Below are positions 6,062 to 47,688 of a stretch of DNA of 61,990 bases, piece after piece. The notes beneath the pieces are model-generated. The model saw only the letters and a program-made list of their open reading frames with translations. It did not search any database and had not been told where the DNA came from. Source of the stretch: Akkermansia muciniphila (GTDB taxonomy: Bacteria > Verrucomicrobiota > Verrucomicrobiia > Verrucomicrobiales > Akkermansiaceae). Made by a program: the position numbers and the translations under genes. Each line of letters opens with the position of its first letter. The stretch's first letter is position 1. The DNA lies in contig CAMAYN010000001.1 of NCBI GenBank assembly GCA_945862285.1, positions 1 through 61,990 on the forward strand, read 5' to 3'.

Positions 6062-7543
6062 TTACACACATTCCGCGTAATCTAGCAAGCCCTGCCTGCC
6101 CCCTTCGCGTCCGAATCCCGATTCCTTGTAGCCACCAAAGGGGGAAGTGGGATCGAATTTATTATAGGTATTTGCCCAAATCACCCCTGCTTTGAGTTGT
6201 GTGGCCATACGCAAAATGCGCGATCCTTTATCCGTCCAAACTCCAGCACTGAGGCCATAGCAGGTATTGTTCGCCTTCTCGATGGCCTCTTCTGGCGTGC
6301 GGAAGGTGAGAATGCTCAGCACGGGGCCAAAAATTTCTTCACGGGCGATGCGATGGCTAAGACTCACACCAGAAAAAATGGTCGGCGGAAAATAATACCC
6401 ATTTGTGGGCAGTGAGCAGTCGGGTTGATGCATTTCCGCGCCTTCGGCAACACCAGCGGCGCAGAGTTCTTGGATTTTGGCGAGTTGCTGCGATGAATTG
6501 ATGGCACCGATGTCGGTATTTTTATCAAGAGGATCGCCGACGCGCAGTGTGCGCAGACGGTTTTTCAGTTTGGCGAGAACTTGATCGGCGATGGATTCTT
6601 GCACAAGTAATCGCGACCCAGCGCAGCAAACGTGGCCTTGATTAAAAAAGATGGCGTTAATGATCCCTTCCACAGCTTGGTCAAGGGGTGCATCTTCAAA
6701 AATGATATTCGCGGCTTTTCCCCCGAGTTCCAGAGTCAGGCGTTTGCTGCTGCCAGCTAAGGTGTGCTGGATCCATTTGCCGACAGCAGTAGAACCAGTG
6801 AAGGCGATTTTTTTCGCTAGTGGATGCTGGACAACGGCTTTTCCTGTATCACCAGGGCCGGTGACGAAGTTGACAACGCCCGGTGGCAAACCTGCTTCGA
6901 GGAGCAAGGTGGCGAATTTTATGCAGGTAATGCTCGTGGTTTCTGCGGGCTTGAGGACGACGGTATTGCCGCACGCGAGTGCGGGGGCGAGCTTCCATGC
7001 GAGCATGAGCAGCGGGAAATTCCAGGGAATGATTTGTCCGACGACACCAAGCGGTGCGAGATTTTTCCCTGGTGTGGCGTAGGCGAGTTTATCAGCCCAA
7101 CCGGCGTGGTAGAAAAAGTGCGCAGCGGCCATGGGAAGGTCAAAGTCGCGAGCTTCTTTGATGGGTTTGCCGCCATCGAGTGTTTCGGCAACGGCAAACT
7201 CACGGGCTCGATCTTGGAGTAGGCGGGCAATGCGATAGAGATATTTTCCACGCTCTGCACCGGGGAGTTTGCTCCATGCGGGGAAGGCGTTTGCTGCGGC
7301 TTGGTAGGCGGCATCGACATCCGTAGCATTGGCATGAGCAATGTCTGCCAAGTGTGATGCATCGCGGGGACTCAGGGAGGGGAAATATTTCTTGCTCCGA
7401 GGTTTGGTGAATTTTCCGCCGATGAAAAGTTCGTAGCGAGTATCGAGGTGGGGTTGAGCTGTCTCAGGTGCGGGATCGTAGTCCCATAAATTTCCGAAGA
7501 GTAATTCACGCTCGGCTGTGCGTGGTGCTTTTTTTGTTGCCAT
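6062..7543 (-). CDS. NAD(P)-dependent aldehyde dehydrogenase
   Basis: ALDH motifs FTGSTAVGK, LELGGKA and the catalytic Cys context FFNQGHVCCAGSR. 493 aa. 12-nt gap to the downstream lyase gene. Confidence 0.85.
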   Translation of the reverse strand: MATKKAPRTAERELLFGNLWDYDPAPETAQPHLDTRYELFIGGKFTKPRSKKYFPSLSPRDASHLADIAHANATDVDAAYQAAANAFPAWSKLPGAERGKYLYRIARLLQDRAREFAVAETLDGGKPIKEARDFDLPMAAAHFFYHAGWADKLAYATPGKNLAPLGVVGQIIPWNFPLLMLAWKLAPALACGNTVVLKPAETTSITCIKFATLLLEAGLPPGVVNFVTGPGDTGKAVVQHPLAKKIAFTGSTAVGKWIQHTLAGSSKRLTLELGGKAANIIFEDAPLDQAVEGIINAIFFNQGHVCCAGSRLLVQESIADQVLAKLKNRLRTLRVGDPLDKNTDIGAINSSQQLAKIQELCAAGVAEGAEMHQPDCSLPTNGYYFPPTIFSGVSLSHRIAREEIFGPVLSILTFRTPEEAIEKANNTCYGLSAGVWTDKGSRILRMATQLKAGVIWANTYNKFDPTSPFGGYKESGFGREGGRQGLLDYAECV

Positions 7544-7601: not shown

Positions 7602-9629
7602 TTATGGTGCCACGGGAGTCAAGATGCCTGTTTTGGTAACGCCGTTTTCTGTCGCCACCACAAGGATCAGTCCGTTCGTAGATAGATCGATGGCTCTGAT
7701 GATTTGTAAATTGCTTCCCGCAGGTTTAGTGATCAGAGTGTTGAGATCGATGTATTTGCCATTTCTCCAGAGGGTTGGATTTTTCGGAATTTGAGCATCT
7801 GGGTCACCTTCTGTGATGGCTAGTCCTTGGGCATTTAATCGATGAGCACCCATTTTCATTGATGCGGGCTTATGCCAACGCGCCGTGCCTGTGCCGCCGA
7901 TGCGTTTTTCGAGCAAACACGCATCACCTGAGGTGATCCACAGCCGACTTGTGTCATCTTGTTTCTTGTTAATCGCCTCGCTCATTTCAGCGACTTCAAC
8001 GACTTGATTTGTCATGAAACTAAGTTCTGAAATGGCAGTGCCTTCTTTGAGCCAGATTTTTGATTGATAGCCGCCCGCATTCAGCGCTCTTCGTTCTACA
8101 CAGAGGGATCGATTTTGATCAAGAATCGCACCAGGGAAGGTCATGTTTTCATCAATTTCTTGTTCTAAATCCCGTACCGTTGTCATGCTGTAGGTATTGC
8201 CTGAACTGGCATAGTTCATCCAAATATTAAATCCTACGGGAGCGTGAGAGCAGAGAGCATTAATGGTGCCATCGTTGGCAATGCCGCCAAAGGTTTTTCG
8301 CGGTTCGAGAGCATTTTGGTAATAATTGTTATGTACAACTGAGCTGATTTCCCCTGCTGGAAATGGATATTGTGGGAAAAAATAATTAGGCGGGGCATAT
8401 TGCGTTTTGCTTGTGCCGCTGCGTTTCCAGACCATGCCAGGAATAAAGGGGTCGATCCTGCCGTAATTATCGCCCTTGCTGAGTCCAAAAATGACACCGT
8501 TGTCGTTGATGTCGATGAACTCAATCACAGGCTCGATTAGATCAAATTGTGTTTGATTTGCAGCTACATTAACCGTCTTGCCATTATAGCTCCAACTCAT
8601 CTCCCATTCGTTTGTGCCAATATTGATGTTTTGCTGACCACTGAGTTCCAAAGTGACCCATGTTTGCGATGCACTATCCCACAGGTTTTTTTGGTCGTTA
8701 ATCTGCATGCCGGTCAACCTGCCATCGCGGAAGAGAATTTGACCATCTTGGTTAATCGCAATCGGTTTATGCAAGGGTGAAATTTCGGTCACATGGGCTT
8801 GCCAAGTGTAGGTGAGAGCAGGGGTTTTTAGCCAATTGATTTCAGCGTCTGTCGGCACAGCATCTTGGCTATCGAGGAGAGTGTCGCCGTCGGTATCGGG
8901 GTTTTTCGGATCGGTGTTATCTTTCAGCTCTTGGAGGTTTAAGCTGCCATCGTTATCTGGATCGATGTCTAAAAGAATTCCAGAGATGCCATTCTGAACA
9001 AGTTCAGTAGTATGGTATTCAGCGAGATTTTGATCAGGAATATCAAGGAAAGATCTCGATTGATTTGGATCCAGCCTAAGGATCAGTTCATCAGCGTTAC
9101 TTAACCCATCTTCATCGGTGTCTTGGTCGAGAACTTTTACGCGCCAAAATAGACGTGGAGCAGCAGAATCGGTAGCGGTATTGGTGGTTTGTATGCCCAT
9201 GCATAACTGCTGATCGTTCGTGCCAGCCGCCATTAATGGTCCGACGTTTGCCCAAAACTTCATATCGGAACTTGTTTGGACTCGATAGACTTTACCCACA
9301 ATCACGGGCCATGCCAATTCGAAGCTGTTTTGTTGGAGCGCAGGCGTGATTTTCACTGCGGTTTTGCCAGTGACTCCAGATGCAGAGAACGGGTTCGTTC
9401 CTGCGAGACATTCTTGGGCATTTGTCCAGCCGTCTTGATCAGGATCGGCAGTAGGGGAATGAGTGGCGTTTGCATCGGAAAATAACACGAGGTTATTATA
9501 TTTCAGTTCCCATGCGTCGCTCAGAGTATTGTTGTTGCGGTCAACCATGCCTGCACTTGGTAGCACGCAGGAAAAAAGGAAGCCACTGATCGATACTCGT
9601 TGCAGAATCTTTTTGGAAGAGAAATTCAT
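7602..9629 (-). CDS. Secreted modular protein (675 aa): ~165-aa N-module shared with 42992..45658 (Asp-rich thrombospondin-type-3-like motif plus a small beta-rich unit), then a unique C-terminal region
   Basis: N-terminal hydrophobic leader. Contains ADPDQDGWTNAQECLAGTNPF and ELAWPVIVGKVYRVQTSSDMKFW...RLFWRVKV, plus further DxDxDG motifs (DPDNDGSLN, NPDTDGDTL). The C-terminus has recurring I-N-D-N-G / ANDGTI / STNGLI motifs reminiscent of HAF-type extracellular repeats (low certainty). The ATG overlaps the upstream stop in an ATGA at 9626..9629. Confidence 0.7.
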   Translation of the reverse strand: MNFSSKKILQRVSISGFLFSCVLPSAGMVDRNNNTLSDAWELKYNNLVLFSDANATHSPTADPDQDGWTNAQECLAGTNPFSASGVTGKTAVKITPALQQNSFELAWPVIVGKVYRVQTSSDMKFWANVGPLMAAGTNDQQLCMGIQTTNTATDSAAPRLFWRVKVLDQDTDEDGLSNADELILRLDPNQSRSFLDIPDQNLAEYHTTELVQNGISGILLDIDPDNDGSLNLQELKDNTDPKNPDTDGDTLLDSQDAVPTDAEINWLKTPALTYTWQAHVTEISPLHKPIAINQDGQILFRDGRLTGMQINDQKNLWDSASQTWVTLELSGQQNINIGTNEWEMSWSYNGKTVNVAANQTQFDLIEPVIEFIDINDNGVIFGLSKGDNYGRIDPFIPGMVWKRSGTSKTQYAPPNYFFPQYPFPAGEISSVVHNNYYQNALEPRKTFGGIANDGTINALCSHAPVGFNIWMNYASSGNTYSMTTVRDLEQEIDENMTFPGAILDQNRSLCVERRALNAGGYQSKIWLKEGTAISELSFMTNQVVEVAEMSEAINKKQDDTSRLWITSGDACLLEKRIGGTGTARWHKPASMKMGAHRLNAQGLAITEGDPDAQIPKNPTLWRNGKYIDLNTLITKPAGSNLQIIRAIDLSTNGLILVVATENGVTKTGILTPVAP

Positions 9630-10528
9630 TGGTCGCCTCCTTTCGCTGCGGGTGATTGTTCCGAGATTTCAGGAGAAATGGGACTTTCTGGAATCCAATA
9701 GCGGATGGTGATATCGGGCGAAGGGTCTGGCGGGTTCGCTTTTAATGCAGCGGCACGACGAGCATTCTCCAATGAAATCCGTTGGTATTCTGCGATAAAG
9801 CTTTTTCGGTGTTTTTTGTATAGCTCATGGAGGCCCTCAACAGCGGCCAAATCCTCTGGTGCCGGGTTCCCCGAAACAATCGTGAACGAAGGCTTCGCCG
9901 CCGCATTGCGGGGGAGTTCTGGTATGGTGGGAGCTACGTATTCGCGCTGCATGTTGCGAGCTTGTTGTGCCATTTTCGCACTGCTTTGATAATTCATCGC
10001 AAACATCACGCTGTGCTGGGTTTGTGCTTTGTTGAATGACTGGATGTGGGCGAAGTGACGGAAATCAACATTCGACCAAGCTTCGTAAAACTCCACGGGT
10101 GTCTTACCTTGGCTTGTCCATTTGATATGGCTACGAGTGAGGGATTTTTCATCGTCTCGAAAAACAGTGCATGAAAACATCGTGAATCGCGTTGTCATCG
10201 CCTGGGCTGCACGTGCCGTTTGATCTTCTGCTGAAAGTTGGGATTGTTGCTTTGGCTCGGGCTTGGGCAAGGGGTCGAGCTTTTTCGATTTCAACTCTTC
10301 AATTGTGAATGTCTGCTCAGGTCGGACAACGACGCGTCGGCTGACAATGTCTGCGGCATCAATTTGTAATTCTACAGCGGGAACTGCCGCCACCTCCGCA
10401 GTTACAGGAGATGGCGGAATGAGCTGTGCTTCGGATGTTGGCGTTACTTGCGCATGTGTCACACTTGTAACGTAGCCACTAAACAAAATCGTTACGATAC
10501 TTTGCAATTTCTTGTTCATATACTTCAA
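9626..10528 (-). CDS. Signal-peptide protein of unknown function (300 aa); partner gene translationally coupled to 7602..9629; paralogue of 45655..46557
   Basis: Leader MKYMNKKLQSIVTILFSGYVTSVTHAQ. The central block RFTMFSCTVFRDDEKSLTRSHIKWTSQGKTPVEFYEAWSNVDF and the tail ANPPDPSPDITIRYWIPE align closely with the 310-aa protein at 45655..46587. I recognise no known domain. Confidence 0.7.
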   Translation of the reverse strand: MKYMNKKLQSIVTILFSGYVTSVTHAQVTPTSEAQLIPPSPVTAEVAAVPAVELQIDAADIVSRRVVVRPEQTFTIEELKSKKLDPLPKPEPKQQSQLSAEDQTARAAQAMTTRFTMFSCTVFRDDEKSLTRSHIKWTSQGKTPVEFYEAWSNVDFRHFAHIQSFNKAQTQHSVMFAMNYQSSAKMAQQARNMQREYVAPTIPELPRNAAAKPSFTIVSGNPAPEDLAAVEGLHELYKKHRKSFIAEYQRISLENARRAAALKANPPDPSPDITIRYWIPESPISPEISEQSPAAKGGDQ

Positions 10529-10627
10529 TTAAAAAAAACGAAATTTCATCATTTGGCAAATTCTAACATAAAATATTTTTCGGGCTTGCTATTTGCAAAA
10601 AAGCAACAATAAGACTTTGATGTTCCA

Positions 10628-12460: not shown

Positions 12461-15391
<2,931 letters not shown>

Positions 15392-22153: not shown

Positions 22154-24772
22154 TTACTGCATCGGCAGCACACCTACTGGAGGAATTAAGTCAGTTGCCC
22201 CTACAGGAGTAATCGCCTCTGCGTCAACTGTAGGTGCAACGTTCGTATCTTTCAATACGGCACCCGTAGCATCGATGACTTGTGCGGTGACAAAAACAAT
22301 CAAGTTACTCTTGATCCGATTTTCCGCTTTGGTTTGGAAGAGTCGGCCAACGATGGGAATATCACCTAAAATCGGCACCTTATCTTCGACGTTTTGCACA
22401 TCTTCGCGCATCAAGCCGCCAACCGCTATGGTATGACCGTCATAGATCGAAAGAGTCGTATTGACGCGACGCACGGAGAAAACAGGCATTTCGATGCGGT
22501 TTTCCGTGACAACGACAGTTGTAGGGTTACCTAATGCGTCAGTCGAAGGCGACTGAATTGGGCTGCCGTAGTTAATGAAACCTTCGAACTCGACAATTTC
22601 AGGAGCAAATGTGAGTTCAATCACAGAGTTATTTGCCGACAAAGTTGGTTCGATCTCCATCGTGACGCCGGTGTTTCGAGTTTCAAATTCGACGGGTGTT
22701 GCAGGTGTTACAGTCGCCCCTTGACCACCGCCGCCACCGCCGCCCTGTCCGAATCCTCCGTTAAAGTTGCCTCCAACGTTCTGAGGGATCTGTGGGGGTT
22801 CGTAAGCAATTGGATAAATAAACTCGCGAATGATCTCAATCTTCGCTTTTTGACCAGACTTCGCCATGATGCTAGGCGCTGTCATAATGTCGGCACCTTT
22901 TTTCTGTGCTAATCCACGCATGATCATCTGCACTTGTCCATCAGTAAACAGACCTGTGAGGCTAAGGATACCAGGAGCGACGGAAGCATTTTGCGCGGTG
23001 CGAGTTGGATTGTTTAGAATAGCATCGATACTGTCGCGGGTAATCGCTGTAGAACCACTGCGATTTGAGCCTGTTACGATATTTGTTACATTCGTTCCAG
23101 TGGCGAGAGGAATACCGTCAATCGATTCGCCGCCTACAAAGTTCAAGAAGTCGGCGTTGGTGCGTCCTGGGCCGTTGCCGACTGTGCCGCCGCCGGGAAA
23201 TAGACCTCCGCCGATGGAGAAGGGCGCCACGATCCAATCAAAGCCAAGTTCATCACTGTTTTCTTGGCTAATCTCGACGAACTTCGTCAAGATTTTGATT
23301 TGTTTCGGTGCACCAAGCTCGAGGCTTCTTACAATCTCCTCGATCAACTCCATGTTGGTTGCTGTGTTGCGAACAATGAGTGTGCTATTTGCTGGATTGT
23401 AGGAAGCAGAAGCCTTTTCTGAAAAGGGAACTCCGCGGTTGATGAGCGCCTGTTGCGCTGTGGGCTTTGGTTTTAATGAGCTAGCTCCACCTGGGGCAGG
23501 TGTGGCAAATGGGTCTTCTGGTGCCGCGCCGCCACCTTCACCTTCACCACCTACTGCAGTAAGGAAATCAGGTGGAACAGTAAAGACACGATAAATAATT
23601 TCTTCGGTATCATCGCTGATCGGGACGATGCTTACCGCGTATTCGCCGACACGATATTTCATTCTTGCCGCTTCGCAGATTTGGCGAAGTGCTTCGGAAA
23701 CAGGGACGTTAGTTAGAAACAATTTGGGAATGCGAATCTGAGACGCATCGGTAGTAGTCGTAGTGGTATCGAGTGGTGCTGCTTCTAGTCCGCCGTCTGC
23801 GGCAGGAGCGGCAGCACCTGATGAGCGTGGACGTGGGATGACAAAGTTGATTCCTTTCGTCGTGTCGCTAGTAGCGAAGGTATCCAATTCTTTGCAACGC
23901 ATCCGCAGGAAATCAATGGCCTCGGAAAGAGTCGTGTCTTCTAGATTGACTGTTGGAAGAATGATACTGTTGAGTTTTTTGATGATTTGCGAAGATCCGC
24001 CGTCATTTCGATCCACACTTCCTGTATTGCTTGGTCCTTGAGGGAGTCCCATGGGGACTGCTAATTCCCATGCTTTATCGACTTGGGAAAGCAACTCGGC
24101 GCGGGCGTGGTCATACGCGGATCTGTAATACGCTGTTTTTGCAGCGGCGACTCTTTCCATCCAACGACGGGCGGCTGAGTTGTAGGGATCAATTAATAAA
24201 ATTTTCTCAAACTCTTTCTTGGCCTCATCAAATTTACCAAGATTGTAATATCCTTCACCATTGTATAGTGTGCGGCGAACTTTATCAACATCTTGGGTGT
24301 GCTTGAATGTGAGCACAGGATTGTGCTGAATCGGATCTTCTAAGATGCTAAGCTCTTTTTTCGCCAAGCCATTTTCTGGGTCAACTCCGGGGGCTAGCAC
24401 ACCCTCAATCAATGCACGGGCTTCGGCACTTTTACCCACCTTGCGAAACTGTCCGGCGAGAGCAACGGCGGCATTGGCGTAGTCAGCCGTCATAGCCGCG
24501 CGACGATCTGCAAGAATCGGTGCGTTGGGAAGAAGACTGATTGCTGCTCTGAGTTTGTCATGCGCTTCTTGATAATTTTCTTGTTGATACGCAACGCGTG
24601 CATCTGCTTGCAACTTATCAGCTTCTTTCACTGCGGCAATGCGGCGAGCGATTTCGCGTGAGGCAGTGCTGCCCGATTCTTGCTGGGCGTGAAGAGCTAC
24701 TGGCATGATGGAGGCTGTTGCGAGGAGCATCGCCAAGGTTTTCTTAATCGATATCGATGGTGTTTTTTGCAT
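22154..24772 (-). CDS. pilQ: Type IV pilus / T2SS-family outer-membrane secretin with N-terminal TPR-like region
   Basis: Signal peptide. C-terminal secretin domain (VPILGDIPIVGRLFQTKAENRIKSNLIVFVTAQVI). Last gene of the pilM-containing operon. It corresponds positionally to Amuc_1098 of Akkermansia muciniphila. Confidence 0.85.
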   Translation of the reverse strand: MQKTPSISIKKTLAMLLATASIMPVALHAQQESGSTASREIARRIAAVKEADKLQADARVAYQQENYQEAHDKLRAAISLLPNAPILADRRAAMTADYANAAVALAGQFRKVGKSAEARALIEGVLAPGVDPENGLAKKELSILEDPIQHNPVLTFKHTQDVDKVRRTLYNGEGYYNLGKFDEAKKEFEKILLIDPYNSAARRWMERVAAAKTAYYRSAYDHARAELLSQVDKAWELAVPMGLPQGPSNTGSVDRNDGGSSQIIKKLNSIILPTVNLEDTTLSEAIDFLRMRCKELDTFATSDTTKGINFVIPRPRSSGAAAPAADGGLEAAPLDTTTTTTDASQIRIPKLFLTNVPVSEALRQICEAARMKYRVGEYAVSIVPISDDTEEIIYRVFTVPPDFLTAVGGEGEGGGAAPEDPFATPAPGGASSLKPKPTAQQALINRGVPFSEKASASYNPANSTLIVRNTATNMELIEEIVRSLELGAPKQIKILTKFVEISQENSDELGFDWIVAPFSIGGGLFPGGGTVGNGPGRTNADFLNFVGGESIDGIPLATGTNVTNIVTGSNRSGSTAITRDSIDAILNNPTRTAQNASVAPGILSLTGLFTDGQVQMIMRGLAQKKGADIMTAPSIMAKSGQKAKIEIIREFIYPIAYEPPQIPQNVGGNFNGGFGQGGGGGGGQGATVTPATPVEFETRNTGVTMEIEPTLSANNSVIELTFAPEIVEFEGFINYGSPIQSPSTDALGNPTTVVVTENRIEMPVFSVRRVNTTLSIYDGHTIAVGGLMREDVQNVEDKVPILGDIPIVGRLFQTKAENRIKSNLIVFVTAQVIDATGAVLKDTNVAPTVDAEAITPVGATDLIPPVGVLPMQ

Positions 24773-24840
24773 GTGCGTCGAGGTGTTTATGTCGTGTTAG
24801 AGTGGGATTGAAAAGAGGAAATTTCGAAAATGTTTACGAA

Positions 24841-25968
24841 TTATGGATTTAGCGGAATGATTCGTGTCATGACTTCACCTTTCTTCGATTTGTATTCGAT
24901 GGTGATTTGGTCTTTTTTGACTTCTTTTAATAAGTAATTTTTTTCCTTGGCATCACTGGGAAGGGCAAATGTTGTATTTTCTTCCACGGTAAATGTTTTC
25001 CCTGTTTCACCTGCGGCATTGAGATTCAAGACGGCACTGCGATCATAGCGCACGGTTTTTGCACGGTCTTGTGGGTTGCGTGGGATCTCAAACAGATCCA
25101 TTTTATTGGCTTTGGTGTCTTGAATTGTGGCGAATTCGACATCTACATTGGCATTGAGTTGTGGATTGAAAACTTGCTTGTTTTGTACTTTCTTCAGCAC
25201 GAAACGATTTTTCTGAAATGTCTTCGCCGCAGCTTGCCATTTTTTATCAGGAACATTTTCAAAAATATTACTATCTGGCGCGACGGGTTCTTCTGTGCGA
25301 GCGTAAGCAATTTGCGCATCTCTCAAAAAGTTTGCTTGTTTCACTGGAGCGGCATTTTCAAACGCCGCTGGGAGTTCGGCAATTTTGAACTCATATTGGT
25401 TCGGCCCCAGTGCCATGGTAAACCAGAGGAAATAGGGCGTGGATGAGTATTTTACGAATTCAAGCTTATCGGCTAGTTCTGGATAGCTGGCTACATCATT
25501 CGGATTCGTTGCGGCCTTGTATTCGTCGAGATTCGAAAAACCATCTTTGTCAGGGTCACGGGATGGGCCATCCGAGAGAAACATGTCATCCTTGAGTTGA
25601 TTTTCTAGCCACCATGTATTGGGGATGTCGGCATGGATCGGTGGATCGATCATCGGATCGACAGATTTGGGTGAGTCTTGTCCCGACTCTGGCTTGCGAG
25701 ATAGCAGAGAAACTCCAACGAAGAGATCGACGGGGCGTTTTTTCTCACCAACAAGGGCGGTAGGGGAAGAAAGCGGGGTATCGAGCATACTGATCGTACT
25801 AGCGAGATCGGCGGCACCTACGATGGACGCGTCATTTTTATTCGTAGGGTTCGATGAAAAGCTGAAGTCTTCTTCGACGGCTGTAATCTTCGAATAGCCG
25901 AGGAAAGCAACGCCGAGAGCGATGACGGAGGCGACGCCAAGAATGATTTTTTCCGAGTTTTTTTTCAT
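24841..25968 (-). CDS. Membrane-anchored periplasmic protein of the pilus operon (positional equivalent of Amuc_1099)
   Basis: N-terminal TM anchor (KIILGVASVIALGVAFLGY). One Asp-rich DPDKDGFSNLDEYKAATNPND motif. No other domain recognised. Confidence 0.6.
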   Translation of the reverse strand: MKKNSEKIILGVASVIALGVAFLGYSKITAVEEDFSFSSNPTNKNDASIVGAADLASTISMLDTPLSSPTALVGEKKRPVDLFVGVSLLSRKPESGQDSPKSVDPMIDPPIHADIPNTWWLENQLKDDMFLSDGPSRDPDKDGFSNLDEYKAATNPNDVASYPELADKLEFVKYSSTPYFLWFTMALGPNQYEFKIAELPAAFENAAPVKQANFLRDAQIAYARTEEPVAPDSNIFENVPDKKWQAAAKTFQKNRFVLKKVQNKQVFNPQLNANVDVEFATIQDTKANKMDLFEIPRNPQDRAKTVRYDRSAVLNLNAAGETGKTFTVEENTTFALPSDAKEKNYLLKEVKKDQITIEYKSKKGEVMTRIIPLNP

Positions 25969-25998
25969 TTTAAATAAGAATGGGGATAAAAATGATGA

Positions 25999-26970
25999 TT
26001 AAGGTTTTTTATTGGTTTTTGCCGCAGGTGCAGGATGGAAGCGAACGATGTCGATGCGCATGAAGACTTGAATTTTTTCTCCTCCGAGTACTTCTTTGAG
26101 AATGATTTCTGAAGTCATGGTTTTGGCTGGTTCTGTCTTGGCCTTTTCACCTTCAGCAGGTTCGCCAGGAAGGACGAATTCGCCAAAGGGAGAAGCAGCG
26201 GGTGCATCTTTATTGCCAGCTTCATCAGTCGCTGCGGTCTCGAAGCGAGCTTCAGAGGCGAGGGGAGGGGTTTGCTTTTCATTGGTGACGCGCATGGAGC
26301 GAATCATATAAAAGTGAGTCTTGGAGTTTTGCGTGGCATCCAACAAGGAGCGGAGGGTTTTTTCTGATCCCGTAAAAGATAATTCTATGGGCAAGGCGCG
26401 ATAGATGGAGTCTTTTGCAGGTGTTTCCTCTTTGCCAGTCTCTTCAGCGAGTGGTTCGCGGTAGAGAGCCATGATGGAGGCAGGTTTGGCGGCGGCGAGA
26501 GCGCGCGTCAATTCGCTGATGGCATCGAGTTGGTAGGAAAGTATGCCTGTCGCTCCTTGTTTGGCAGGGGTGTCAGCGTATTTTTCAAAGCCGAGGAAAA
26601 AGCCATCGGGCAGCGCGGCACCTTTCAGTGCTTCTTTTACTTCGGCGACTTCTTTGACAAGTTTGTCAGTGAAAGCTTGAGCATCGGTATTCGTTACTGG
26701 CTCGGAGCCGTATTTACGGAGTTCTGTGATCAGCTTATTTGACTCGGTATCGAAGTTTTTAATATTTTTTTCCTTACTGGCGATGTTATCTGGAGTAGGA
26801 GAAAGTTGAAGGTTGTTGTATTTATTGATTTCAGTGGAGACCTCTTCATAGGAGGCCTTCGCTTCGTCGTAGCGAGTGCTGGCAGAGCCGGCCCAGAAGT
26901 AAAGACCTGTGGAGCAAGCGGCAGTGATGACGGAGAGGATGATGACGAATTTTTTTTCCTGTGGATTCAT
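25999..26970 (-). CDS. Amuc_1100-like pilus-associated protein (323 aa)
   Basis: N-terminal TM anchor. The blocks PIELSFTGSEKTLRSLLDA...FYMIRSMRVTNEK and GEKIQVFMRIDIVRFHP align by eye with A. muciniphila Amuc_1100 (PLEIAFQGDRESVLKAMNA...FTVNSIRIRNER; KEQVFVKVSLNLVHFNQP, recalled from memory). It has the same position between the pilM-like and secretin genes. Confidence 0.75.
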   Translation of the reverse strand: MNPQEKKFVIILSVITAACSTGLYFWAGSASTRYDEAKASYEEVSTEINKYNNLQLSPTPDNIASKEKNIKNFDTESNKLITELRKYGSEPVTNTDAQAFTDKLVKEVAEVKEALKGAALPDGFFLGFEKYADTPAKQGATGILSYQLDAISELTRALAAAKPASIMALYREPLAEETGKEETPAKDSIYRALPIELSFTGSEKTLRSLLDATQNSKTHFYMIRSMRVTNEKQTPPLASEARFETAATDEAGNKDAPAASPFGEFVLPGEPAEGEKAKTEPAKTMTSEIILKEVLGGEKIQVFMRIDIVRFHPAPAAKTNKKP

Positions 26971-27003
26971 AATGCGAGAAAGATGCGGTAGAGTCGGAGT
27001 GAA

Positions 27004-28863
27004 TTACTTAGCGGGGACTTCACGAGTGATGGGAAGTACGATTTCGAAAGGCCAAGCGTATTTCTCTTTTTCATCTTCGGCACTTTGTAATTTGATGAGG
27101 ATATTTTCTTTGGGGAATTCAGCGACAGATTTATCGGGATTGAGTCCAGAGAATTTGAAAATCGTGGATGTTGAGCCTTGCAGGGAGGCCAGCAACTTGT
27201 TGACGACGTTCTGTTTATCTGGATTATCCCGCCACATTCCTTTGATGCGAATGGCATTAAAGGTGGAGCTGTCGGTAGTGTTCGTATTCGCTTTGGAAGG
27301 CGCGGACGTAGCGGTAGCTACCTTGGCGATGATCGAGGAAGTCGTGGAATTGGCACCAAAATCATCCTTCACCACTGATTCACCATTGACGTCGGGTTGG
27401 CCTGCTTCAACTTTCTTTTTCAATGGGTCATAGCCCCTGACAGGAGCCATGTCCACACTCCAAACATACTGGCTGGAGAAGTGAGTGGTGATTTCGTTGA
27501 GAGCGGCGACCCAAAATGTTTGATTCAACTTAGCTGTGATGTAGGCTTGTGCGGTCGCCTTGAGTTGTGACTCTTTGCGGAGCAAGTTCTCCATCGGCAC
27601 ACCCGTTTGGGCGAGTGTTTCTTTTTCTTGCTTCAGGGCGGCGAGTCGCTCTTCGGCATCGGAAGCCGCTTTGCTCTTCAGTAAACCAAATGCTGCCATG
27701 CCGACGACGATGGCCGCGGCGGAAGCGATAAAGAAGGGCTTACGTTTGTCCGCACTGCGCAAGGCCTCGACGCTGGCTGGTACGAGATCGATATTAATCG
27801 AAGATTTTCCTGTGGTGCGTAAACCGAGACCGATGAGTTCGCCCATTAGGTGAGCCTCGCGTGAAAGAAGTTCGGCATCGACATTTTTTCCAACGCTGAT
27901 GCTGCGGAGTGGATTAAAGTATTCTACGGGTATGCCGAGCTTTTCTTCGAGGAATTCCTTGGCATAAGGCAAGGTAGCACCGCCGCCTGCGAGAACGATA
28001 CGGCGTGGTGCATTACCACTATGATTGCTGCGATAGTGGTTCGTGGTGCGTGCGATTTCCGTTGGGAGTCGCGTCATGGCATTTCTGATGACCGTGCCAA
28101 GGGCGGCGACGGCTTCATCGAGATGGGATGTATGACCACCGCCAAGAGTCACGATGCCGTTGGAAGTTTTTTGGCTTTCTGCTTCTGCGAAGCTGATTCC
28201 ATATTCTTTTGCTATGGCTGTGGTAATGGATGCGCCCCCTACGGAAATGCTGCGGGTGAAGAAACGTGCACCCTCAATGTAAAGGAGGTTGCTTGTTTTA
28301 GCTCCGACATCAATCAGTAGCACGGGTTCTTGCACATCCGCATAAGCACTGCGGAAGGCGTTGTAGAGAGCCATTGGAGCGACATCGATTTCCGAAGTCA
28401 AGAATCCATGTCCGAGAATGCAGCTATTGATTTCATCGAGTGCGTCAGACTTAATGGCGACGAGCGCGACTTCTTTTTCTCCGGGAGCACCGGGGAGTAA
28501 TTCGTAATCCCAAACGACGGTGTCTAAGGGGAATGGGAATTGCTGTTGTGCCTCAAAGGTGACGAGTTGATCAATGTTGTCGCTATCGATGGCAGGAAGC
28601 TTCACGAATCGGGTTAGAACGGATTGACCGGCTACCGCGTAGCGAATCCTTGTGCCTTTGGCGATTTTTAGCCGTTGTGCCAATTCTTGGATGGCGAGCC
28701 GTGTTTGTGGCATGCGGATCACTTCGGCAGCAGGATCTGCGAGAATTGAGGTGGATTCGTAGGCCTTGAGCACTAATCCTCCAGATTTGGAGGTTTCAAA
28801 GACAGCCATGCTAATGCGCTGCGACCCAATGTTAAGAACTACGGAGCTTGGAGTTTCTGCCAT
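27004..28863 (-). CDS. pilM: PilM (actin-like ATPase) fused to a PilN-like TM/coiled-coil region and a C-terminal periplasmic domain
   Basis: FtsA/PilM-type motifs (VLNIGSQRISMAVFE, LLIDVGAKTSNLLYIEG, IVLAGGGATLP). These are followed by a TM helix (FFIASAAAIVVGMAAFGLL) and a coiled coil. Equivalent to Amuc_1101. Confidence 0.8.
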   Translation of the reverse strand: MAETPSSVVLNIGSQRISMAVFETSKSGGLVLKAYESTSILADPAAEVIRMPQTRLAIQELAQRLKIAKGTRIRYAVAGQSVLTRFVKLPAIDSDNIDQLVTFEAQQQFPFPLDTVVWDYELLPGAPGEKEVALVAIKSDALDEINSCILGHGFLTSEIDVAPMALYNAFRSAYADVQEPVLLIDVGAKTSNLLYIEGARFFTRSISVGGASITTAIAKEYGISFAEAESQKTSNGIVTLGGGHTSHLDEAVAALGTVIRNAMTRLPTEIARTTNHYRSNHSGNAPRRIVLAGGGATLPYAKEFLEEKLGIPVEYFNPLRSISVGKNVDAELLSREAHLMGELIGLGLRTTGKSSINIDLVPASVEALRSADKRKPFFIASAAAIVVGMAAFGLLKSKAASDAEERLAALKQEKETLAQTGVPMENLLRKESQLKATAQAYITAKLNQTFWVAALNEITTHFSSQYVWSVDMAPVRGYDPLKKKVEAGQPDVNGESVVKDDFGANSTTSSIIAKVATATSAPSKANTNTTDSSTFNAIRIKGMWRDNPDKQNVVNKLLASLQGSTSTIFKFSGLNPDKSVAEFPKENILIKLQSAEDEKEKYAWPFEIVLPITREVPAK

Positions 28864-28918
28864 ATTTGTTAGATTTTTTTGAAGAAAAAATGGTATGAGG
28901 AAATGTGGTGTGACCTAA

Positions 28919-29533
28919 TTATCGATTATCTGGTTTAATTTCCGCATAGCGGTCATACCAGAAAATGGAGAAGGGTGTATCATTTTTCGAAAGCAACGGA
29001 ATGGAGCTATCCTCGCTAATTTTGTCGCTCTTCATAGTCCACCATTTATCTTTACCTTTATTGGTATTGGTCTTTTTCTCTTCACCATCGACGAAAACTT
29101 CGTATCCGACGAATTCGACGGCATTTTTACCACCACGTGGTGATCCAGTTAGGAGGCGAATGGAGTTAGGACTTAGATAGATAGAGGAATAGATATCCTC
29201 ATTGAGAGGTACGTTGATGTGGGTGATGCTTTTGGTAAGAAGTAAAAATGTTCCAGGCTTTTCTGGGTTTTTAACCGCAACATACCACTTTACAATCACC
29301 TCCTTGGCCGTTTTTGATTTTGGTTCTGGGCTGAGTTGGACTTTGATCTTTGCTTCTACCTCTAACCAATCGTTTGGCGTAAAGCGTTTGCTGTTAGGAA
29401 GCTGGATGTTAGGCGATTGCAAATCGTCAAAAGTAGGCTTGTCGCCATCAACTTTCGACGCTGCGGAAGCAATTGGGCTCGATAACAAAAAGGCTGTAGA
29501 GAATAATACGAATAAGTTAGAATTCATTTTCAT
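28919..29533 (-). CDS. Secreted protein, first gene of the pilus operon (positional equivalent of Amuc_1102)
   Basis: Signal peptide MKMNSNLFVLFSTAFLLSSPIASA. 204 aa. No recognisable domain; the call rests on position only. Confidence 0.55.
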   Translation of the reverse strand: MKMNSNLFVLFSTAFLLSSPIASAASKVDGDKPTFDDLQSPNIQLPNSKRFTPNDWLEVEAKIKVQLSPEPKSKTAKEVIVKWYVAVKNPEKPGTFLLLTKSITHINVPLNEDIYSSIYLSPNSIRLLTGSPRGGKNAVEFVGYEVFVDGEEKKTNTNKGKDKWWTMKSDKISEDSSIPLLSKNDTPFSIFWYDRYAEIKPDNR

Positions 29534-38363: not shown

Positions 38364-39641
38364 TTGTTGTTCATCTTCGCGCCGATGTTTCACCAATCTC
38401 TACCCCACCGGCAATCCGTCAGCATTCGCTGGATTATCCGTATGCGATGGCTCGCGGTGCTTGGGCAATTTGTTGCGGCAGTAGTAGCGTTTTTTCTCTA
38501 CGATGTAAAAGTTCCGTGGTGGCCCATCTCCGCTGTGCTCGCTATGACAGTGGTATCCAATCTCCTTTTTCCCCATCGACCGAAACTCGTTTTACGTGGT
38601 TGGAGTTTATGGCTGGATGTCATTTTACTTACCGTCTTGATTTATTTTACTGGCGGGCCTCACAATCCTTTTACTTCGTTTTATCTGCTACATATCGCGC
38701 TTGCGGCGATGACTTTGTCGGCACGAAATTTATGGTGTCTGGTGGCCGCATGCATCGCGGGCTATAGTTTTTTATTTTTCAATCATCGGCCTGTGATTCT
38801 GGGCGATATGGAAATTAGTAGTGGCTGTGAAAGTTATAGTTGGCATTTACAAGGCATGCTCATCGCCTTCATTGTGACGGCCTGCTTCATCGCGGCATTT
38901 GTCGCAAGGATGCATCGGATTTTGTTAGAGCAAGATGCAGAGCTAGAGTCGGCACGCATTGAGGTGGAAAAAAATGCTCATTTTGCCTCTTTGGTGACGC
39001 TTTCCGCAGGTGTAGCACACGAACTCGGATCGCCATTAGCCACCATCTCGCTCGCGAGTTCAGAGTTATTACGATCTGCCACACCAGAAGTCATCGACGA
39101 TGCACAACTCATCCACTCGCAGGCACAACGCTGCCGCACGATACTCGATCAACTCAACGAGAGGAATACCTTCGGCATTGGCGATCCTTGTGTTGCAATT
39201 ACTGGTGAGACTTTAGAAAAAGCCGTTAGAGAAAAAGCTTCCCCCGATGTTCTTTCACGTCTGAAAGTGAAAATCCTCAAAAATCATCCCTGTAGCTTAC
39301 CAGTAGAATCCATCGTGCAGGCCATGATTATTTTACTCGAAAATGCCGTGCAGGCTGACCAAAGCGATGTCGCTGTGGAATGGCAAATCACTACCAGCGA
39401 AAATGGATGTGTGGTCGAAGTGATCGATGCTGGACCTGCATTGGACACCGCGATTTTACAAAGAGCCAGTGATCCCTTTTTCACCACCAAAGCACCAGGA
39501 GAAGGCATGGGGTTGGGGTTGTTTCTGGTGCAATGCCTCGCGCAACGATTGCGTGGCAAATTTGAAATCACCCGCTCGGCTTCGGGGCGCACCCATGCGC
39601 GATTGCTTCTTCAATCACCTCCATCTACGCATGCACCATGA
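38364..39641 (+). CDS. regB: RegB/PrrB-type redox-sensing histidine kinase
   Basis: Multi-TM N-terminus with the GGxxNPF motif (TGGPHNPFTSFYL). H-box AHELGSPLATISL. Cys box AQRCRTILDQL. HATPase G-box GEGMGLGLF. The start could lie a few codons downstream. Confidence 0.75.
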   Translation: MLFIFAPMFHQSLPHRQSVSIRWIIRMRWLAVLGQFVAAVVAFFLYDVKVPWWPISAVLAMTVVSNLLFPHRPKLVLRGWSLWLDVILLTVLIYFTGGPHNPFTSFYLLHIALAAMTLSARNLWCLVAACIAGYSFLFFNHRPVILGDMEISSGCESYSWHLQGMLIAFIVTACFIAAFVARMHRILLEQDAELESARIEVEKNAHFASLVTLSAGVAHELGSPLATISLASSELLRSATPEVIDDAQLIHSQAQRCRTILDQLNERNTFGIGDPCVAITGETLEKAVREKASPDVLSRLKVKILKNHPCSLPVESIVQAMIILLENAVQADQSDVAVEWQITTSENGCVVEVIDAGPALDTAILQRASDPFFTTKAPGEGMGLGLFLVQCLAQRLRGKFEITRSASGRTHARLLLQSPPSTHAP

Positions 39642-42044: not shown

Positions 42045-43016
42045 TTAGTGAGGTAAACCCTCGAATAAGGTCGCAGCGTGTTTGTAGATTGGGTCATTTT
42101 TATCATCGATTTTATTTTTGATACTTTGTAGCTCCGAAAGCGATCCCGGACTGTTTTGTAATGCAATTTCATCTATTACCAATCTTCTTATACTTATATG
42201 CAAATCGTTTTCAAAAGTTTTGTAGAAAGTAAAAAGGTCTTGTTCATTCTTTATGTAACTTTTGCCAGTATAAATTGCTAAAGCTCTGTAAATCGGGTTT
42301 TTTGAATTTCCCATATTTTTCAACATATTTATGTTTTCTTCTTGAGATGAATTTTTGAATGGATTAACATCACTAGCAATTCTAGCTAAAAATATATCTC
42401 CTAATTGCGGTTCTTCTTTGGACATCCGTTCCTTAAAGAACTTATCAATGCCGGAATTATTTGTCTGTGAGTATAAAGCATAAACCGCGTACAATCCATA
42501 AGCGCCTGACATTTCATCATCAGTTAGCTTTGACGTGCTACTTCCTTTTCTCAATTCTTCTACAAATTTGCTAGAACTACGGAATAATACACTAAAGTCA
42601 ATATTCGCTATGTCAACAGTCACTTCAAAATCCTCAATCCAATACCTGCTTGCAAGTTGTGTCAACTTTTGCGAAGTTTTTGCAATATCCGATTCTTTTA
42701 GAATTGCAGAATTTAATTCTGCTAAAACTAATTTAGCGTAAGCAGGAATTTCTTGTAATGGAACTTCATTTCCAGTATCACTTATTGAGTTAGCGGTGGG
42801 TAATGGTCTTGTATCTTTCACAGAAATTCCATGAAAATCAAATTCCCTTAGAATGCTTTCATCAGCAATATTATTACCTGATTGTTGTCTTTTGAGTGAA
42901 GCCTCGCTTTGTGTTTTGGTAGTGCGATTTTCTTCAGAAATTTTTTCTTTCTTGCAAGATGACAAACCAGATAGAAACAGAGTAAGAATGATTATGGTGT
43001 TTGACGAATGGGCCAT
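42045..43016 (-). CDS. Lipoprotein of unknown function (323 aa), very AT-rich gene overlapping the end of 42992..45658
   Basis: Lipobox LFLSGLSSC after MAHSSNTIIILT. The predicted helical C-terminus looks repeat-like (NPIYRALAIYTG..., DPIYKHAATLFEG). My hand count is ~25 % GC in 42301..42400. 25-nt overlap with the upstream gene. Confidence 0.65.
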   Translation of the reverse strand: MAHSSNTIIILTLFLSGLSSCKKEKISEENRTTKTQSEASLKRQQSGNNIADESILREFDFHGISVKDTRPLPTANSISDTGNEVPLQEIPAYAKLVLAELNSAILKESDIAKTSQKLTQLASRYWIEDFEVTVDIANIDFSVLFRSSSKFVEELRKGSSTSKLTDDEMSGAYGLYAVYALYSQTNNSGIDKFFKERMSKEEPQLGDIFLARIASDVNPFKNSSQEENINMLKNMGNSKNPIYRALAIYTGKSYIKNEQDLFTFYKTFENDLHISIRRLVIDEIALQNSPGSLSELQSIKNKIDDKNDPIYKHAATLFEGLPH

Positions 43017-45658: not shown

Positions 45659-46557
45659 TGGCCACCTCCTTGCTGAGTTTGAGCTTCTTGTTGCTCTTGG
45701 AGTTTTTCTGCCATCGTTTTTTCGGGAGTCCAATAGCGGATGATGAGGTTAGGAGTTGGGTCGGGAGGGTTGGCGGCTAATGCAGCGGCACGGCGGGCGT
45801 TTTCTTCTTTGAGGGAGGCAGATTTAGCGATGAAAGCGGCGTGGTGCTGTTGGTAGAGTTCGTGCAGACCATCGAGGGCGGCGAGGTCGGTTTCATCGGG
45901 ATTCCCTTGGGTAATGGCGTAGGTGGGTTGCGTTGTGGAATCGGTGGGGAGTTCGGGAATTGATGGTGGGGTATAGGTTTTTCCTGCTTGTGCGGCGCGG
46001 GTGGCGGCTTGGGAATTAGATTGATCGCCAATGCCAAACATGACGTTGTGGGTAATGTTGGCTTTGTTGAAGGCGTGAAGATGGGTGAGGTGATGGAAGT
46101 TGACGTTTGACCATGCTTCGTAGAATTCGGTGGGAGTTTTCCCTTGGCTTGTCCAGCGGATGTGGGTGCGAGTGGTGCCGTTGGCCTCGTCGTGATGGAC
46201 GGTGCAGGAAAGCATCGTCATGCGGTGTTCGGTGCGATGAGCAATCCTTGCGGCACGAGCGGCTTGTTGTTCCGGTGTTACAGGTTCGGGGGTTGGAGCG
46301 GCATGTGGAAGAGGAATGTCTTGGGGGACGACTTCTTGAATGGTGATGGTTTGATCTGGGCGAACGACGGTGCGGGAAGAAATGATTTCATCTGGGGTGA
46401 TTTCGAGTTTTGGGGCGGCGGGAACAGCGGGCGCGCTAGGTGCTGCTTGCTCGGGGATGAGGGTGGCGGTCTCATCGGCATAGGTTGCAGGAAATAGATT
46501 GACCACGAAGAACGCGAGAGCGTAGAGGCGCGAATTTTGTAAGAGACTGATTTTCAT
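45655..46557 (-). CDS. Signal-peptide protein of unknown function (about 300 aa), paralogue of 9626..10528, translationally coupled to 42992..45658
   Basis: Likely start at ATG 46557 (MKISLLQNSRLYALAFFVVNLFPATYA). HRMTMLSCTVHHDEANGTTRTHIRWTSQGKTPTEFYEAWSNVNF and ANPPDPTPNLIIRYWTPE match the paralogue. Confidence 0.7.
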   Translation of the reverse strand: MKISLLQNSRLYALAFFVVNLFPATYADETATLIPEQAAPSAPAVPAAPKLEITPDEIISSRTVVRPDQTITIQEVVPQDIPLPHAAPTPEPVTPEQQAARAARIAHRTEHRMTMLSCTVHHDEANGTTRTHIRWTSQGKTPTEFYEAWSNVNFHHLTHLHAFNKANITHNVMFGIGDQSNSQAATRAAQAGKTYTPPSIPELPTDSTTQPTYAITQGNPDETDLAALDGLHELYQQHHAAFIAKSASLKEENARRAAALAANPPDPTPNLIIRYWTPEKTMAEKLQEQQEAQTQQGGGQ

Positions 46558-47460: not shown

Positions 47461-47498
47461 GCTCCTGCTGTGAGAAAAATCGCGGCAGGAGCTTTTTT
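47461..47498 (+). terminator. Rho-independent terminator after the family-A gene
   Basis: Stem GCTCCTGCTG / CGGCAGGAGC (47461..47470 and 47483..47492; one G-T pair), 12-nt loop, then TTTTTT at 47493..47498. Confidence 0.75.
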
Positions 47499-47688
47499 CT
47501 CGGGAGTTCGGCCTTTTTACTCGAAAGTTCAGCCTTTTTGCTCGGAAGATCGACCTTTTTACTCGGAAGATCGGCCATTTTGCTCGGAAGATCGACCTTT
47601 TTGCTCGGAAGATCGACCTTTTTGCTCGGAAGATCGGCCTTTTTGCTCGGAAGCTCGACCTTTTTGCTCGGAAGTTCGCCCTTTTTTG
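47493..47688. repeat. Tandem array B: 9 units of exactly 21 bp (TTTGCTCGGAAGATCGACCTT)
   Basis: The CTCG core recurs at 47499, 47520, 47541, 47562, 47583, 47604, 47625, 47646 and 47667, a constant 21-nt spacing. The array starts on the terminator T-tract and ends ~125 nt upstream of the AlkP-family gene. Confidence 0.95.

Follow-up and report, generated by a model that had tools for sequence, protein, structure and literature searches.

The window analysed here, a 61,990-nucleotide stretch of an Akkermansia muciniphila assembly (GCA_945862285.1, contig CAMAYN010000001.1, positions 1 to 61,990), carries on its reverse strand two copies of a compact two-gene unit. In each copy the first gene encodes a protein of about 300 residues, which we call the partner, and the second encodes a larger protein, the cargo, consisting of a conserved N-terminal module (N-module) and a C-terminal payload. 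The features of the two pairs are listed below (TSP3, thrombospondin type 3).

9626..10528, reverse strand: partner 1 gene, an open reading frame of 300 aa from TTG 10528; the product has a Sec-type signal peptide, proline-rich linkers, an alpha/beta core and a conserved ANPPDP..IRYW tail
9626..9641, reverse strand: coupling junction of pair 1, with AGGAGG at 9636..9641, a 6-nt spacer and ATG 9627..9629 overlapping TGA 9626..9628
7602..9629, reverse strand: cargo 1 gene, 675 aa
9354..9629, reverse strand: cargo 1 residues 1-92, a signal peptide (~1-27) and two EF-hand/TSP3-like calcium-loop-plus-helix segments (DRNNNTLSDAWE, DPDQDGWTNAQE)
9126..9353, reverse strand: cargo 1 residues 93-168, a small six-strand beta-sandwich (WPVIVGKVYRVQ...LFWRVKV)
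8844..9125, reverse strand: cargo 1 residues 169-262, TSP3-type calcium-binding repeats and a helical linker
7605..8843, reverse strand: cargo 1 payload, residues 263-675, all-beta and propeller-like, with no Pfam family
45655..46557, reverse strand: partner 2 gene, 300 aa from ATG 46557, in a frame that is open up to GTG 46587
45655..45670, reverse strand: coupling junction of pair 2, with AGGAGG at 45665..45670, a 6-nt spacer and ATG 45656..45658 overlapping TGA 45655..45657
42992..45658, reverse strand: cargo 2 gene, 888 aa from ATG
45134..45658, reverse strand: cargo 2 N-module, residues 1-175, with the sandwich at residues 95-164 and TSP3 repeats next
42045..43016, reverse strand: gene after cargo 2, 323 aa, with a lipoprotein-like product (LSGLSSC), overlapping the end of cargo 2 by 25 nt

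The two partners are 48% identical over 250 residues (BLASTP, E = 7e-76). The cargos are 42% identical over ~235 columns (E = 3e-51), a region that spans the signal peptide, the ADPDQDGWTNAQE motif, WPVI.GK.YR.Q and LF(W/Y)RVKV; beyond it there is no significant alignment and the C-termini are unrelated. Judged by these alignments, the resemblance between the two pairs is far beyond chance. Both junctions read AGGAGG, six nucleotides, then ATGA, with the cargo ATG overlapping the partner TGA. A preliminary description of this DNA had called the two ~300-residue proteins paralogues on the strength of shared blocks, all of which fall within the alignment, and had noted the homology of the first ~165 residues of the downstream proteins and the identical ATGA junctions at 9626..9629 and 45655..45658; all three observations hold. 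It was also right that cargo 1 carries a different payload, and a ~400-residue all-beta, propeller-like domain makes its term 'repeat-containing' a fair one, but the boundary has to move: because TSP3 repeats fill residues 169-262, the payload proper begins near residue 263 (about nt 8843), not at ~9130. Likewise, the N-module is conserved as described, with the correction that it is a composite of calcium-loop segments and a beta-sandwich.

The start of partner 1 is likely ATG 10519 rather than TTG 10528, giving 297 residues, the same length as the 94% identical relative P0001. The region around it (10519..10627, reverse strand) is an AT-rich intergenic stretch of 100 bp without a clear Shine-Dalgarno sequence, while the cargo start has a perfect AGGAGG, so that strong initiation signals seem reserved for the coupled second gene.

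The partner family and its coupling to the cargo

The partner belongs to a sizeable family. When 1.84 billion representatives were searched exhaustively with a profile, 633 clusters (at 50% identity) had E ≤ 1e-3, 214 of them E ≤ 1e-10, and most members are 250-320 residues long; a word-indexed search with the partner returned only eight close relatives. Fifty diverse partners have in common a signal peptide, proline-rich linkers, the motifs LSATVY, AWSNxDF and LHxLY, and a C-terminal ANPPxPKD...W. W151, S152, H234, Y237, P266, P267 and W278 are nearly invariant among them, and 49 of the 50 begin with a signal-peptide-like segment. Partner 1 has no hydrophobic segment other than its signal peptide.

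None of the 50 diverse partners matches a Pfam or NCBIfam family, nothing in PADLOC or PHROGs resembles the partner, and neither close nor broad profiles matched any PDB sequence. Every family member that could be traced to a source name is either unnamed or a 'hypothetical protein'. An AF2 model built from the 50-sequence alignment (predicted local distance difference test score (pLDDT) 88.2; predicted template modelling score 0.75) describes a soluble alpha/beta protein formed by a beta-hairpin, an antiparallel sheet, a 40-residue helix and a final strand. A Foldseek search with this model against PDB and BFVD gave no match at E ≤ 0.001, with all query-normalised TM-scores below 0.2, and the partner is accordingly modelled as an alpha/beta protein without a detectable known fold.

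The gene neighbourhoods of the family were compared at 48 unique loci, which come from Verrucomicrobiales genomes and unassigned metagenome contigs. They were collected by look-ups of close relatives, a one-genome-per-species scan (11 loci) and a metagenome scan (30 loci); the scans used a 10-member alignment and one peptide pattern, [FY][EA]AWSN[VI][DN]F, and sample only part of the family. The proteins were assigned with home-made hidden Markov models for partner, N-module and sandwich. All 11 loci of the species scan are from Verrucomicrobiales/Verrucomicrobiota (Akkermansiaceae, Verrucomicrobiaceae, Haloferula and Luteolibacter), and a single metagenome-assembled genome (MAG) can hold up to three copies of the pair.

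At all 48 loci the gene directly after the partner encodes a signal-peptide protein with the sandwich or TSP3 repeats. The sandwich is present wherever enough of the cargo sequence is available, with one exception (L010), and TSP3-like motifs occur at most loci. No third gene, secretion-gene neighbourhood or export machinery is conserved beside the pair in the loci compared.

The coupling is nearly as constant. The cargo start overlaps the partner TGA at 45 of 48 unique junctions (32 ATGA and 13 GTGA), and 40 of these 45 have GGAG or GAGG within 20 nt upstream. The overlap persists at partner identities of 20-30% and across unrelated neighbourhoods. In partner 1 the last codons (GGDQ and the stop) hold the ribosome-binding site of cargo 1. 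A GG two residues ahead of the partner stop is invariant in the close family A1 and frequent, if not universal, over the 48 loci; it is a protein-level trace of the ribosome-binding site embedded in the last partner codons. With a start-stop overlap and a ribosome-binding site inside the upstream coding sequence, the genes have the signature expected of a coupled operon pair. Three of the 48 pairs are uncoupled. In one of them, L014, a TAA stop and a 29-nt gap separate the genes, and its cargo (L014 8513..10051) ends in a PEP-CTERM sorting signal and would thus take a different anchoring route.

The association was also followed from the cargo side. The N-module alone retrieved only 3 proteins in a word-index search, and full-length cargo 1 retrieved 78 relatives. 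Six N-module proteins were picked for long contigs and varied payloads, and five of the six have a partner gene directly upstream, with stop and start sharing ATGA or GTGA in each case. Across loci, the identities of partners are correlated with those of sandwiches (Mantel r = 0.74, 0 of 2000 permutations), and partner clusters largely track the N-terminal layout of the cargo.

The pair is real and conserved, and it is apparently undescribed: searches of the literature on Amuc_1099, on thrombospondin type 3 in Verrucomicrobia or Akkermansia, and on MUL2 turned up nothing about it. Two things are new for certain, namely the family to which the partner belongs and the pair of tightly coupled genes. 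The preliminary description had staked its proposal on co-occurrence of the two families, on an ATGA junction kept in relatives and on the two families standing apart from secretion or sorting systems already characterised, and it fared well on each: adjacency is complete from the partner side and found in five of six cases from the cargo side, the overlap recurs at 45 of 48 junctions, and no such system accounts for either the partner or the N-module family. Its functional suggestion, a dedicated export or maturation pair for variable cargo, needs qualifying in view of the cargos without a payload, the N-module in DUF1800 proteins and the lack of conserved export machinery next to the pair.

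Cargo architecture and payload exchange

The conserved N-module of the cargo is composite, with calcium-loop segments joined to the small beta-sandwich, which is the element common to nearly all downstream proteins of the family. By their motif, DRNNNTLSDAWE and DPDQDGWTNAQE read as 12-residue EF-hand/TSP3 calcium loops. The AF2 model of cargo 1 (pLDDT 84.2) has a disordered signal peptide, helices at residues 38-44 and 70-76 (pLDDT about 87-94 for residues 31-80, lower from 81) and an all-beta domain at residues 273-673. Two N-terminal layouts occur, with the calcium loops first in 19 unique loci, as in the window, and the sandwich first in 25. A signal-peptide-like N-terminus is present in 43 of 45 cargos. 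Cargo 2 exceeds the cutoff of PF18884 (TSP3_bac; 39.1 bits against 25). Cargo 1 stays below it at 18.4 bits, with three D.D.DG...E motifs, and relatives exceed it.

C-terminal to this region the cargos diverge. The payload of cargo 1 shows only a generic propeller likeness in Foldseek (sialidases, integrin alpha and others; TM-scores of 0.16-0.44 by either normalisation, ~10% identity). An identity as a HAF-repeat protein or sialidase was considered for it and rejected, as NCBIfam and Pfam lend no support and the structural likeness is generic. The payload of cargo 2 (~650 aa) is unrelated to that of cargo 1 and matches no Pfam or NCBIfam family. Elsewhere the longer cargos carry LamG, alpha/beta hydrolase, CotH, amidase or other domains, or a PEP-CTERM tail. 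Many 'cargos' are only 165-275 residues long and consist of sandwich and TSP3 repeats without any payload, which points to the pair itself as the seat of the core function.

Many short cargos and the orthologues of cargo 1 end in a strand-like motif (ATLRILTPVK, ATVLKVWAPLE, TELMVISPLK or TGILTPVAP; for example window 7602..7640, L018, L033, L045 and L047). It is missing from most long cargos, and cargo 2 ends in YLIFQSWPIRQTP. The motif could be a sorting or strand-complementation signal.

Comparison of close relatives shows that payloads are exchanged while partner and N-module stay together, as the preliminary description had surmised from the two pairs of the window. The partner at locus L004 is 86% identical to partner 2, and its cargo is 68% identical to cargo 2 over the first 180 residues and then unrelated. 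Three loci of the Akkermansiaceae MAG AnMBR.bin208 (L009, L012 and L013) have near-identical partner genes and near-identical first ~200 cargo residues; the cargos are 1338, 1457 and 965 residues long, their C-termini differ, with a DUF900 alpha/beta hydrolase in one of them. The pattern suggests that cassette-like exchange took place recently.

Partner and cargo also occur as one polypeptide. In the natural single-chain fusion P0115 (868 aa), the partner domain (residues 10-301) leads through a non-hydrophobic linker into the sandwich (333-389), behind which lie TSP3 repeats and a payload. The internal signal peptide is lost, and the C-terminal domain contains a GDSG motif.

The genes that follow the cargos are not conserved. 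The next gene after cargo 1 is an aldehyde dehydrogenase gene (6062..7543), a synteny kept in orthologous loci, and no small gene lies after cargo 1 among the open reading frames of the window, as had been noted at the outset. The gene after cargo 2 (42045..43016) is not conserved in the other loci compared and has no family match, and its membership in the unit is uncertain; its product may be a payload-specific accessory. At L025 (5630..7542) the cargo gene is followed by two tandem paralogues (301 and 330 aa, ~36-40% identical) that are unrelated to the genes after other cargos compared, an arrangement that recalls immunity-gene arrays.

Three further features of the window were recorded. 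A sub-threshold match of cargo 1 to Amuc_1099 led us to a complete homologue of the Akkermansia pilus-like/MUL2 locus between the two pairs (22154..29533, reverse strand), with members of the Amuc_1098 TPR-secretin, Amuc_1099, Amuc_1100, Amuc_1101 PilM-like and Amuc_1102 families, all above their NCBIfam cutoffs. A gene for an NAD-dependent DNA ligase (12461..15376, reverse strand) encodes 971 residues, against 731 in a 92-95% identical orthologue (L005). The extra ~230 residues (about 14072..14806) lie in frame within the adenylation domain and match Kinase-PolyVal of Pfam (PF18762, E = 8e-12); kinase domains of this type are typical of the polyvalent proteins of phages and conjugative elements. 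Finally, a 21-bp tandem repeat (47492..47686; 9.3 copies, 88% match) lies ~900 bp upstream of partner 2, with open reading frames on both strands that encode a repeated heptapeptide (EDRPFCS and similar).

Possible roles of the partner

We propose that each pair is a free-standing two-gene module of Verrucomicrobiales. Both products would leave the cytoplasm by way of their Sec-type signal peptides. A ribosome finishing the partner would re-initiate on the cargo, as the position of the cargo ribosome-binding site inside the last partner codons and the start-stop overlap imply, and the protein ratio would thereby be fixed. In the periplasm the partner would bind the N-terminal region of the cargo, that is, the beta-sandwich and the acidic TSP3 calcium loops, and act stoichiometrically as an adaptor that holds, anchors or escorts it. 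The variable C-terminal domain (a beta-propeller in cargo 1; LamG, hydrolase, CotH or nothing elsewhere) would then be displayed at the surface or released. We give a probability of roughly 45% to the core of this reading, in which partner and cargo, exported by Sec and produced in a fixed ratio, associate through the cargo N-module and the partner serves as adaptor, anchor or holdase. Homology, architecture, conserved coupling, payload exchange, export signals and one fusion protein are directly observed; we infer that the two proteins bind each other, in which compartment they do so, and that the partner works as adaptor, anchor or escort.

Several lines of evidence speak for such a complex. 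Partner paralogues and N-modules are homologous, as against unrelated payloads; the genes are adjacent at 48 of 48 loci and overlap at 45 of 48; P0115 unites both in one chain; payloads change while partner and N-module stay together; partner and sandwich identities are correlated; no other neighbour is conserved; and pairing is reciprocal in five of six cases. A number of observations weigh against it. The fusion is known from a single 47.8-kb Logan contig. The nearly invariant Ser152, His234 and Tyr237 would also suit an enzyme. The L010 cargo keeps the calcium-loop start and lacks the sandwich. At L020 (5001..9081; Luteolibacter sp. GHJ8), a DUF1800 protein carries a full N-module at residues 39-188 (E = 2.5e-24) with a DUF1501 gene downstream and no partner gene nearby, so the N-module does not always need a partner. 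DUF1800 proteins account for 12 of the 78 relatives of cargo 1, among which this one locus was inspected, and a minority of the N-module proteins probably manage without a partner. The Mantel correlation points to inheritance as a unit, not to binding, and is what co-duplication alone would give. Nor is charge complementarity a family trait: electrostatic attraction between a basic partner and an acidic cargo was tried as an explanation and dropped, since it is true of partner 1 and fails across the family, in which partner cores are not consistently basic.

One rival is that the genes are merely co-expressed, with independent products and an overlap that reflects ordinary operon compaction. 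Four-base overlaps are the commonest kind between adjacent bacterial genes, and the window contains others, such as that at 39638..39641. We nonetheless regard this as improbable, for adjacency and overlap survive where the proteins are ~25% identical and the genomic surroundings unrelated, partner and cargo duplicate together, and a fusion protein exists. The same strict coupling (45/48), together with one-to-one duplication with the cargo, argues for stoichiometric rather than catalytic action, and hence against a partner that matures the N-module by cleaving, cross-linking or otherwise modifying the sandwich/TSP3 region. W151, S152, H234, Y237, P266, P267 and W278 could include a Ser/His site, and an unrecognised fold leaves room for an unrecognised activity, but no hydrolase or transferase family is matched and we hold a maturation enzyme to be very unlikely. 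It would be similarly surprising if the pairs formed a polymorphic effector system, in which toxins or effectors make up the variable C-termini, the partner serves as an adaptor or chaperone specific to its effector, and immunity comes from payload-specific genes downstream, such as 42045..43016. Conserved 5' parts with swapped C-termini (L009/L012/L013; cargo 2 against L004) do recall polymorphic toxin loci, non-homologous small genes follow some cargos, including the tandem paralogues of L025, and some payloads are hydrolases (N-acetylmuramoyl-L-alanine amidase, alpha/beta hydrolase). Set against this, the payload of cargo 1 is propeller-like with no small gene downstream, LamG and other binding-type domains are the payloads met most often, many cargos lack a payload altogether, and neither a recognised toxin or defence domain nor T5, T6 or T7 secretion markers were matched.

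Somewhat less remote, though still unlikely, is a dedicated outer-membrane export factor that pilots its own cargo to or through a channel, for example the Amuc_1098-type secretin of the window, in the manner of two-partner secretion. One-to-one pairing and a conserved module at the N-terminus of otherwise variable exoproteins would fit, as would the complete Amuc_1098-1102 secretin/pilus-like locus between the two pairs. The Amuc_1099-family member of the window bears the same 22-residue TSP3-like motif as the cargo, but this is a common calcium-binding repeat. All assigned loci belong to Verrucomicrobiales, the order in which the Amuc_1098-1102 locus is reported to be conserved (PMC13174399). 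The partner model, however, contains neither a beta-barrel nor a membrane segment, the partner has no Omp85/POTRA, secretin, pilotin or usher match, and the pairs are scattered without a conserved link to secretion genes. A bolder reading, which we consider doubtful if a little more plausible than a dedicated export factor, is that the partner family and the sandwich-TSP3 module form an unrecognised, Verrucomicrobiales-wide export or display pathway for modular exoproteins. This would be a new two-partner system, with a novel-fold periplasmic partner made in lock-step with the cargo and required to deliver or tether it at the cell surface, possibly via an Amuc_1098-type secretin.

Akkermansia belongs to Verrucomicrobiales, as do abundant glycan degraders of water and soil, and to our knowledge little is understood of how these bacteria bring adhesins and enzymes onto or past the outer membrane. 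A family of hundreds of clusters, in which a novel-fold partner is locked by a four-base overlap to a calcium-repeat exoprotein, offers a defined and testable unit of this surface biology, and it merits a family definition even without a known function. Should the partner turn out to export or anchor its cargo, the N-module would serve as a tag by which a whole class of surface or secreted proteins of the phylum can be predicted from sequence, would provide a handle for displaying foreign domains, and would add a new example of payload shuffling behind a constant delivery module.

Relation to known systems

In its logic the pair resembles two-partner secretion, effector-adaptor pairs and the AB toxins with overlapping cistrons, and it fails the defining features of each. 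With two-partner secretion (type Vb, TpsB and TpsA) it shares one-to-one pairing, a conserved N-terminal module, an exchangeable C-terminus and several pairs per genome. However, the partner is a ~270-residue soluble alpha/beta protein with one long helix, not a 16-strand Omp85 barrel with POTRA domains (ShlB/POTRA_2), and none of the 50 diverse partners matches a two-partner secretion family in Pfam or NCBIfam. The cargo N-module is likewise formed by calcium-loop helices and a six-strand sandwich, not by the TPS (haemagglutination activity) beta-helix, and in Pfam the cargos match only TSP3_bac and no TPS domain.

Other paired systems were compared as well. For chaperone-usher pili, there is no family match, no PapD-like chaperone in the fold search and no conserved third gene. 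Two EF-hand-like loop-helix segments do stand at the cargo N-terminus, as a comparison with cohesin-dockerin pairs would have it, but PF00404 and PF00963 are unmatched and the partner has no cohesin fold match. Lipase-foldase pairs, whose chaperone acts on the catalytic domain, differ from the pair described here, where conservation goes with the N-module instead of the payload; the partner also has no Pfam match to Lif (Lipase_chap). As to polymorphic toxin-immunity loci, cargo 1 has a propeller-like payload with an aldehyde dehydrogenase gene next to it, and cargo 2 a payload without family match followed by the 323-residue lipoprotein-like gene.

Among calcium-repeat proteins, the TSP3-repeat surface proteins (PF18884; Myxococcus CglD and MtsD) resemble the cargos in their acidic TSP3-type calcium-binding repeats. 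The likeness is confined to these repeats, at 26-27 bits against cutoffs of 800 (MtsD) and 400 (CglD), and CglD and MtsD have no partner gene of this family. The Amuc_1099/Amuc_1100 genes of MUL2 share the order of a ~300-residue protein followed by a protein with a TSP3 motif. Both possible equivalences were rejected. Against NF042425 (Amuc_1099), cargo 1 scores 40 bits (cutoff 50, best stretch 30 residues) and cargo 2 12.5, compared with 270.9 bits for the true Amuc_1099-family member of the window, which shares only the one 22-residue TSP3 motif with cargo 1. The partner has no NCBIfam match that would make it a relative of Amuc_1100 (NF038287), and hhalign of the 50-member alignment A2 against the Amuc_1100-family protein of the window gave a probability of 0.3%. 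In the DUF1800/DUF1501 pairs of Planctomycetes and Verrucomicrobia, some DUF1800 proteins start with a complete N-module and are paired with a second exported protein, but that neighbour is a DUF1501 protein encoded downstream, not a member of the partner family.

The two remaining comparisons concern how a dedicated small protein might serve a variable one. Eag/DUF1795 chaperones are encoded upstream of effectors of the type VI secretion system, and such effector-adaptor pairs have, like the pair described here, a small dedicated protein encoded upstream of one with a conserved N-terminal region and variable C-terminal domains; the effector adaptor recognises that N-terminal region. They differ from it in fold and in their type VI context, and the verrucomicrobial payloads are mostly not toxins. 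Moreover, partner and cargo both have signal peptides, so that any interaction would take place outside the cytoplasm, unlike that of effector-adaptor pairs. The cholera toxin genes ctxAB are overlapping cistrons for an AB toxin that is assembled in the periplasm. There, too, two Sec-exported proteins are encoded with an ATGA-type overlap; the arrangement sets their ratio, and they are assembled after export and secreted as a complex. Unrelated to the verrucomicrobial pair in sequence and fold, ctxAB still offers the closest analogy for the way in which the pair may work.

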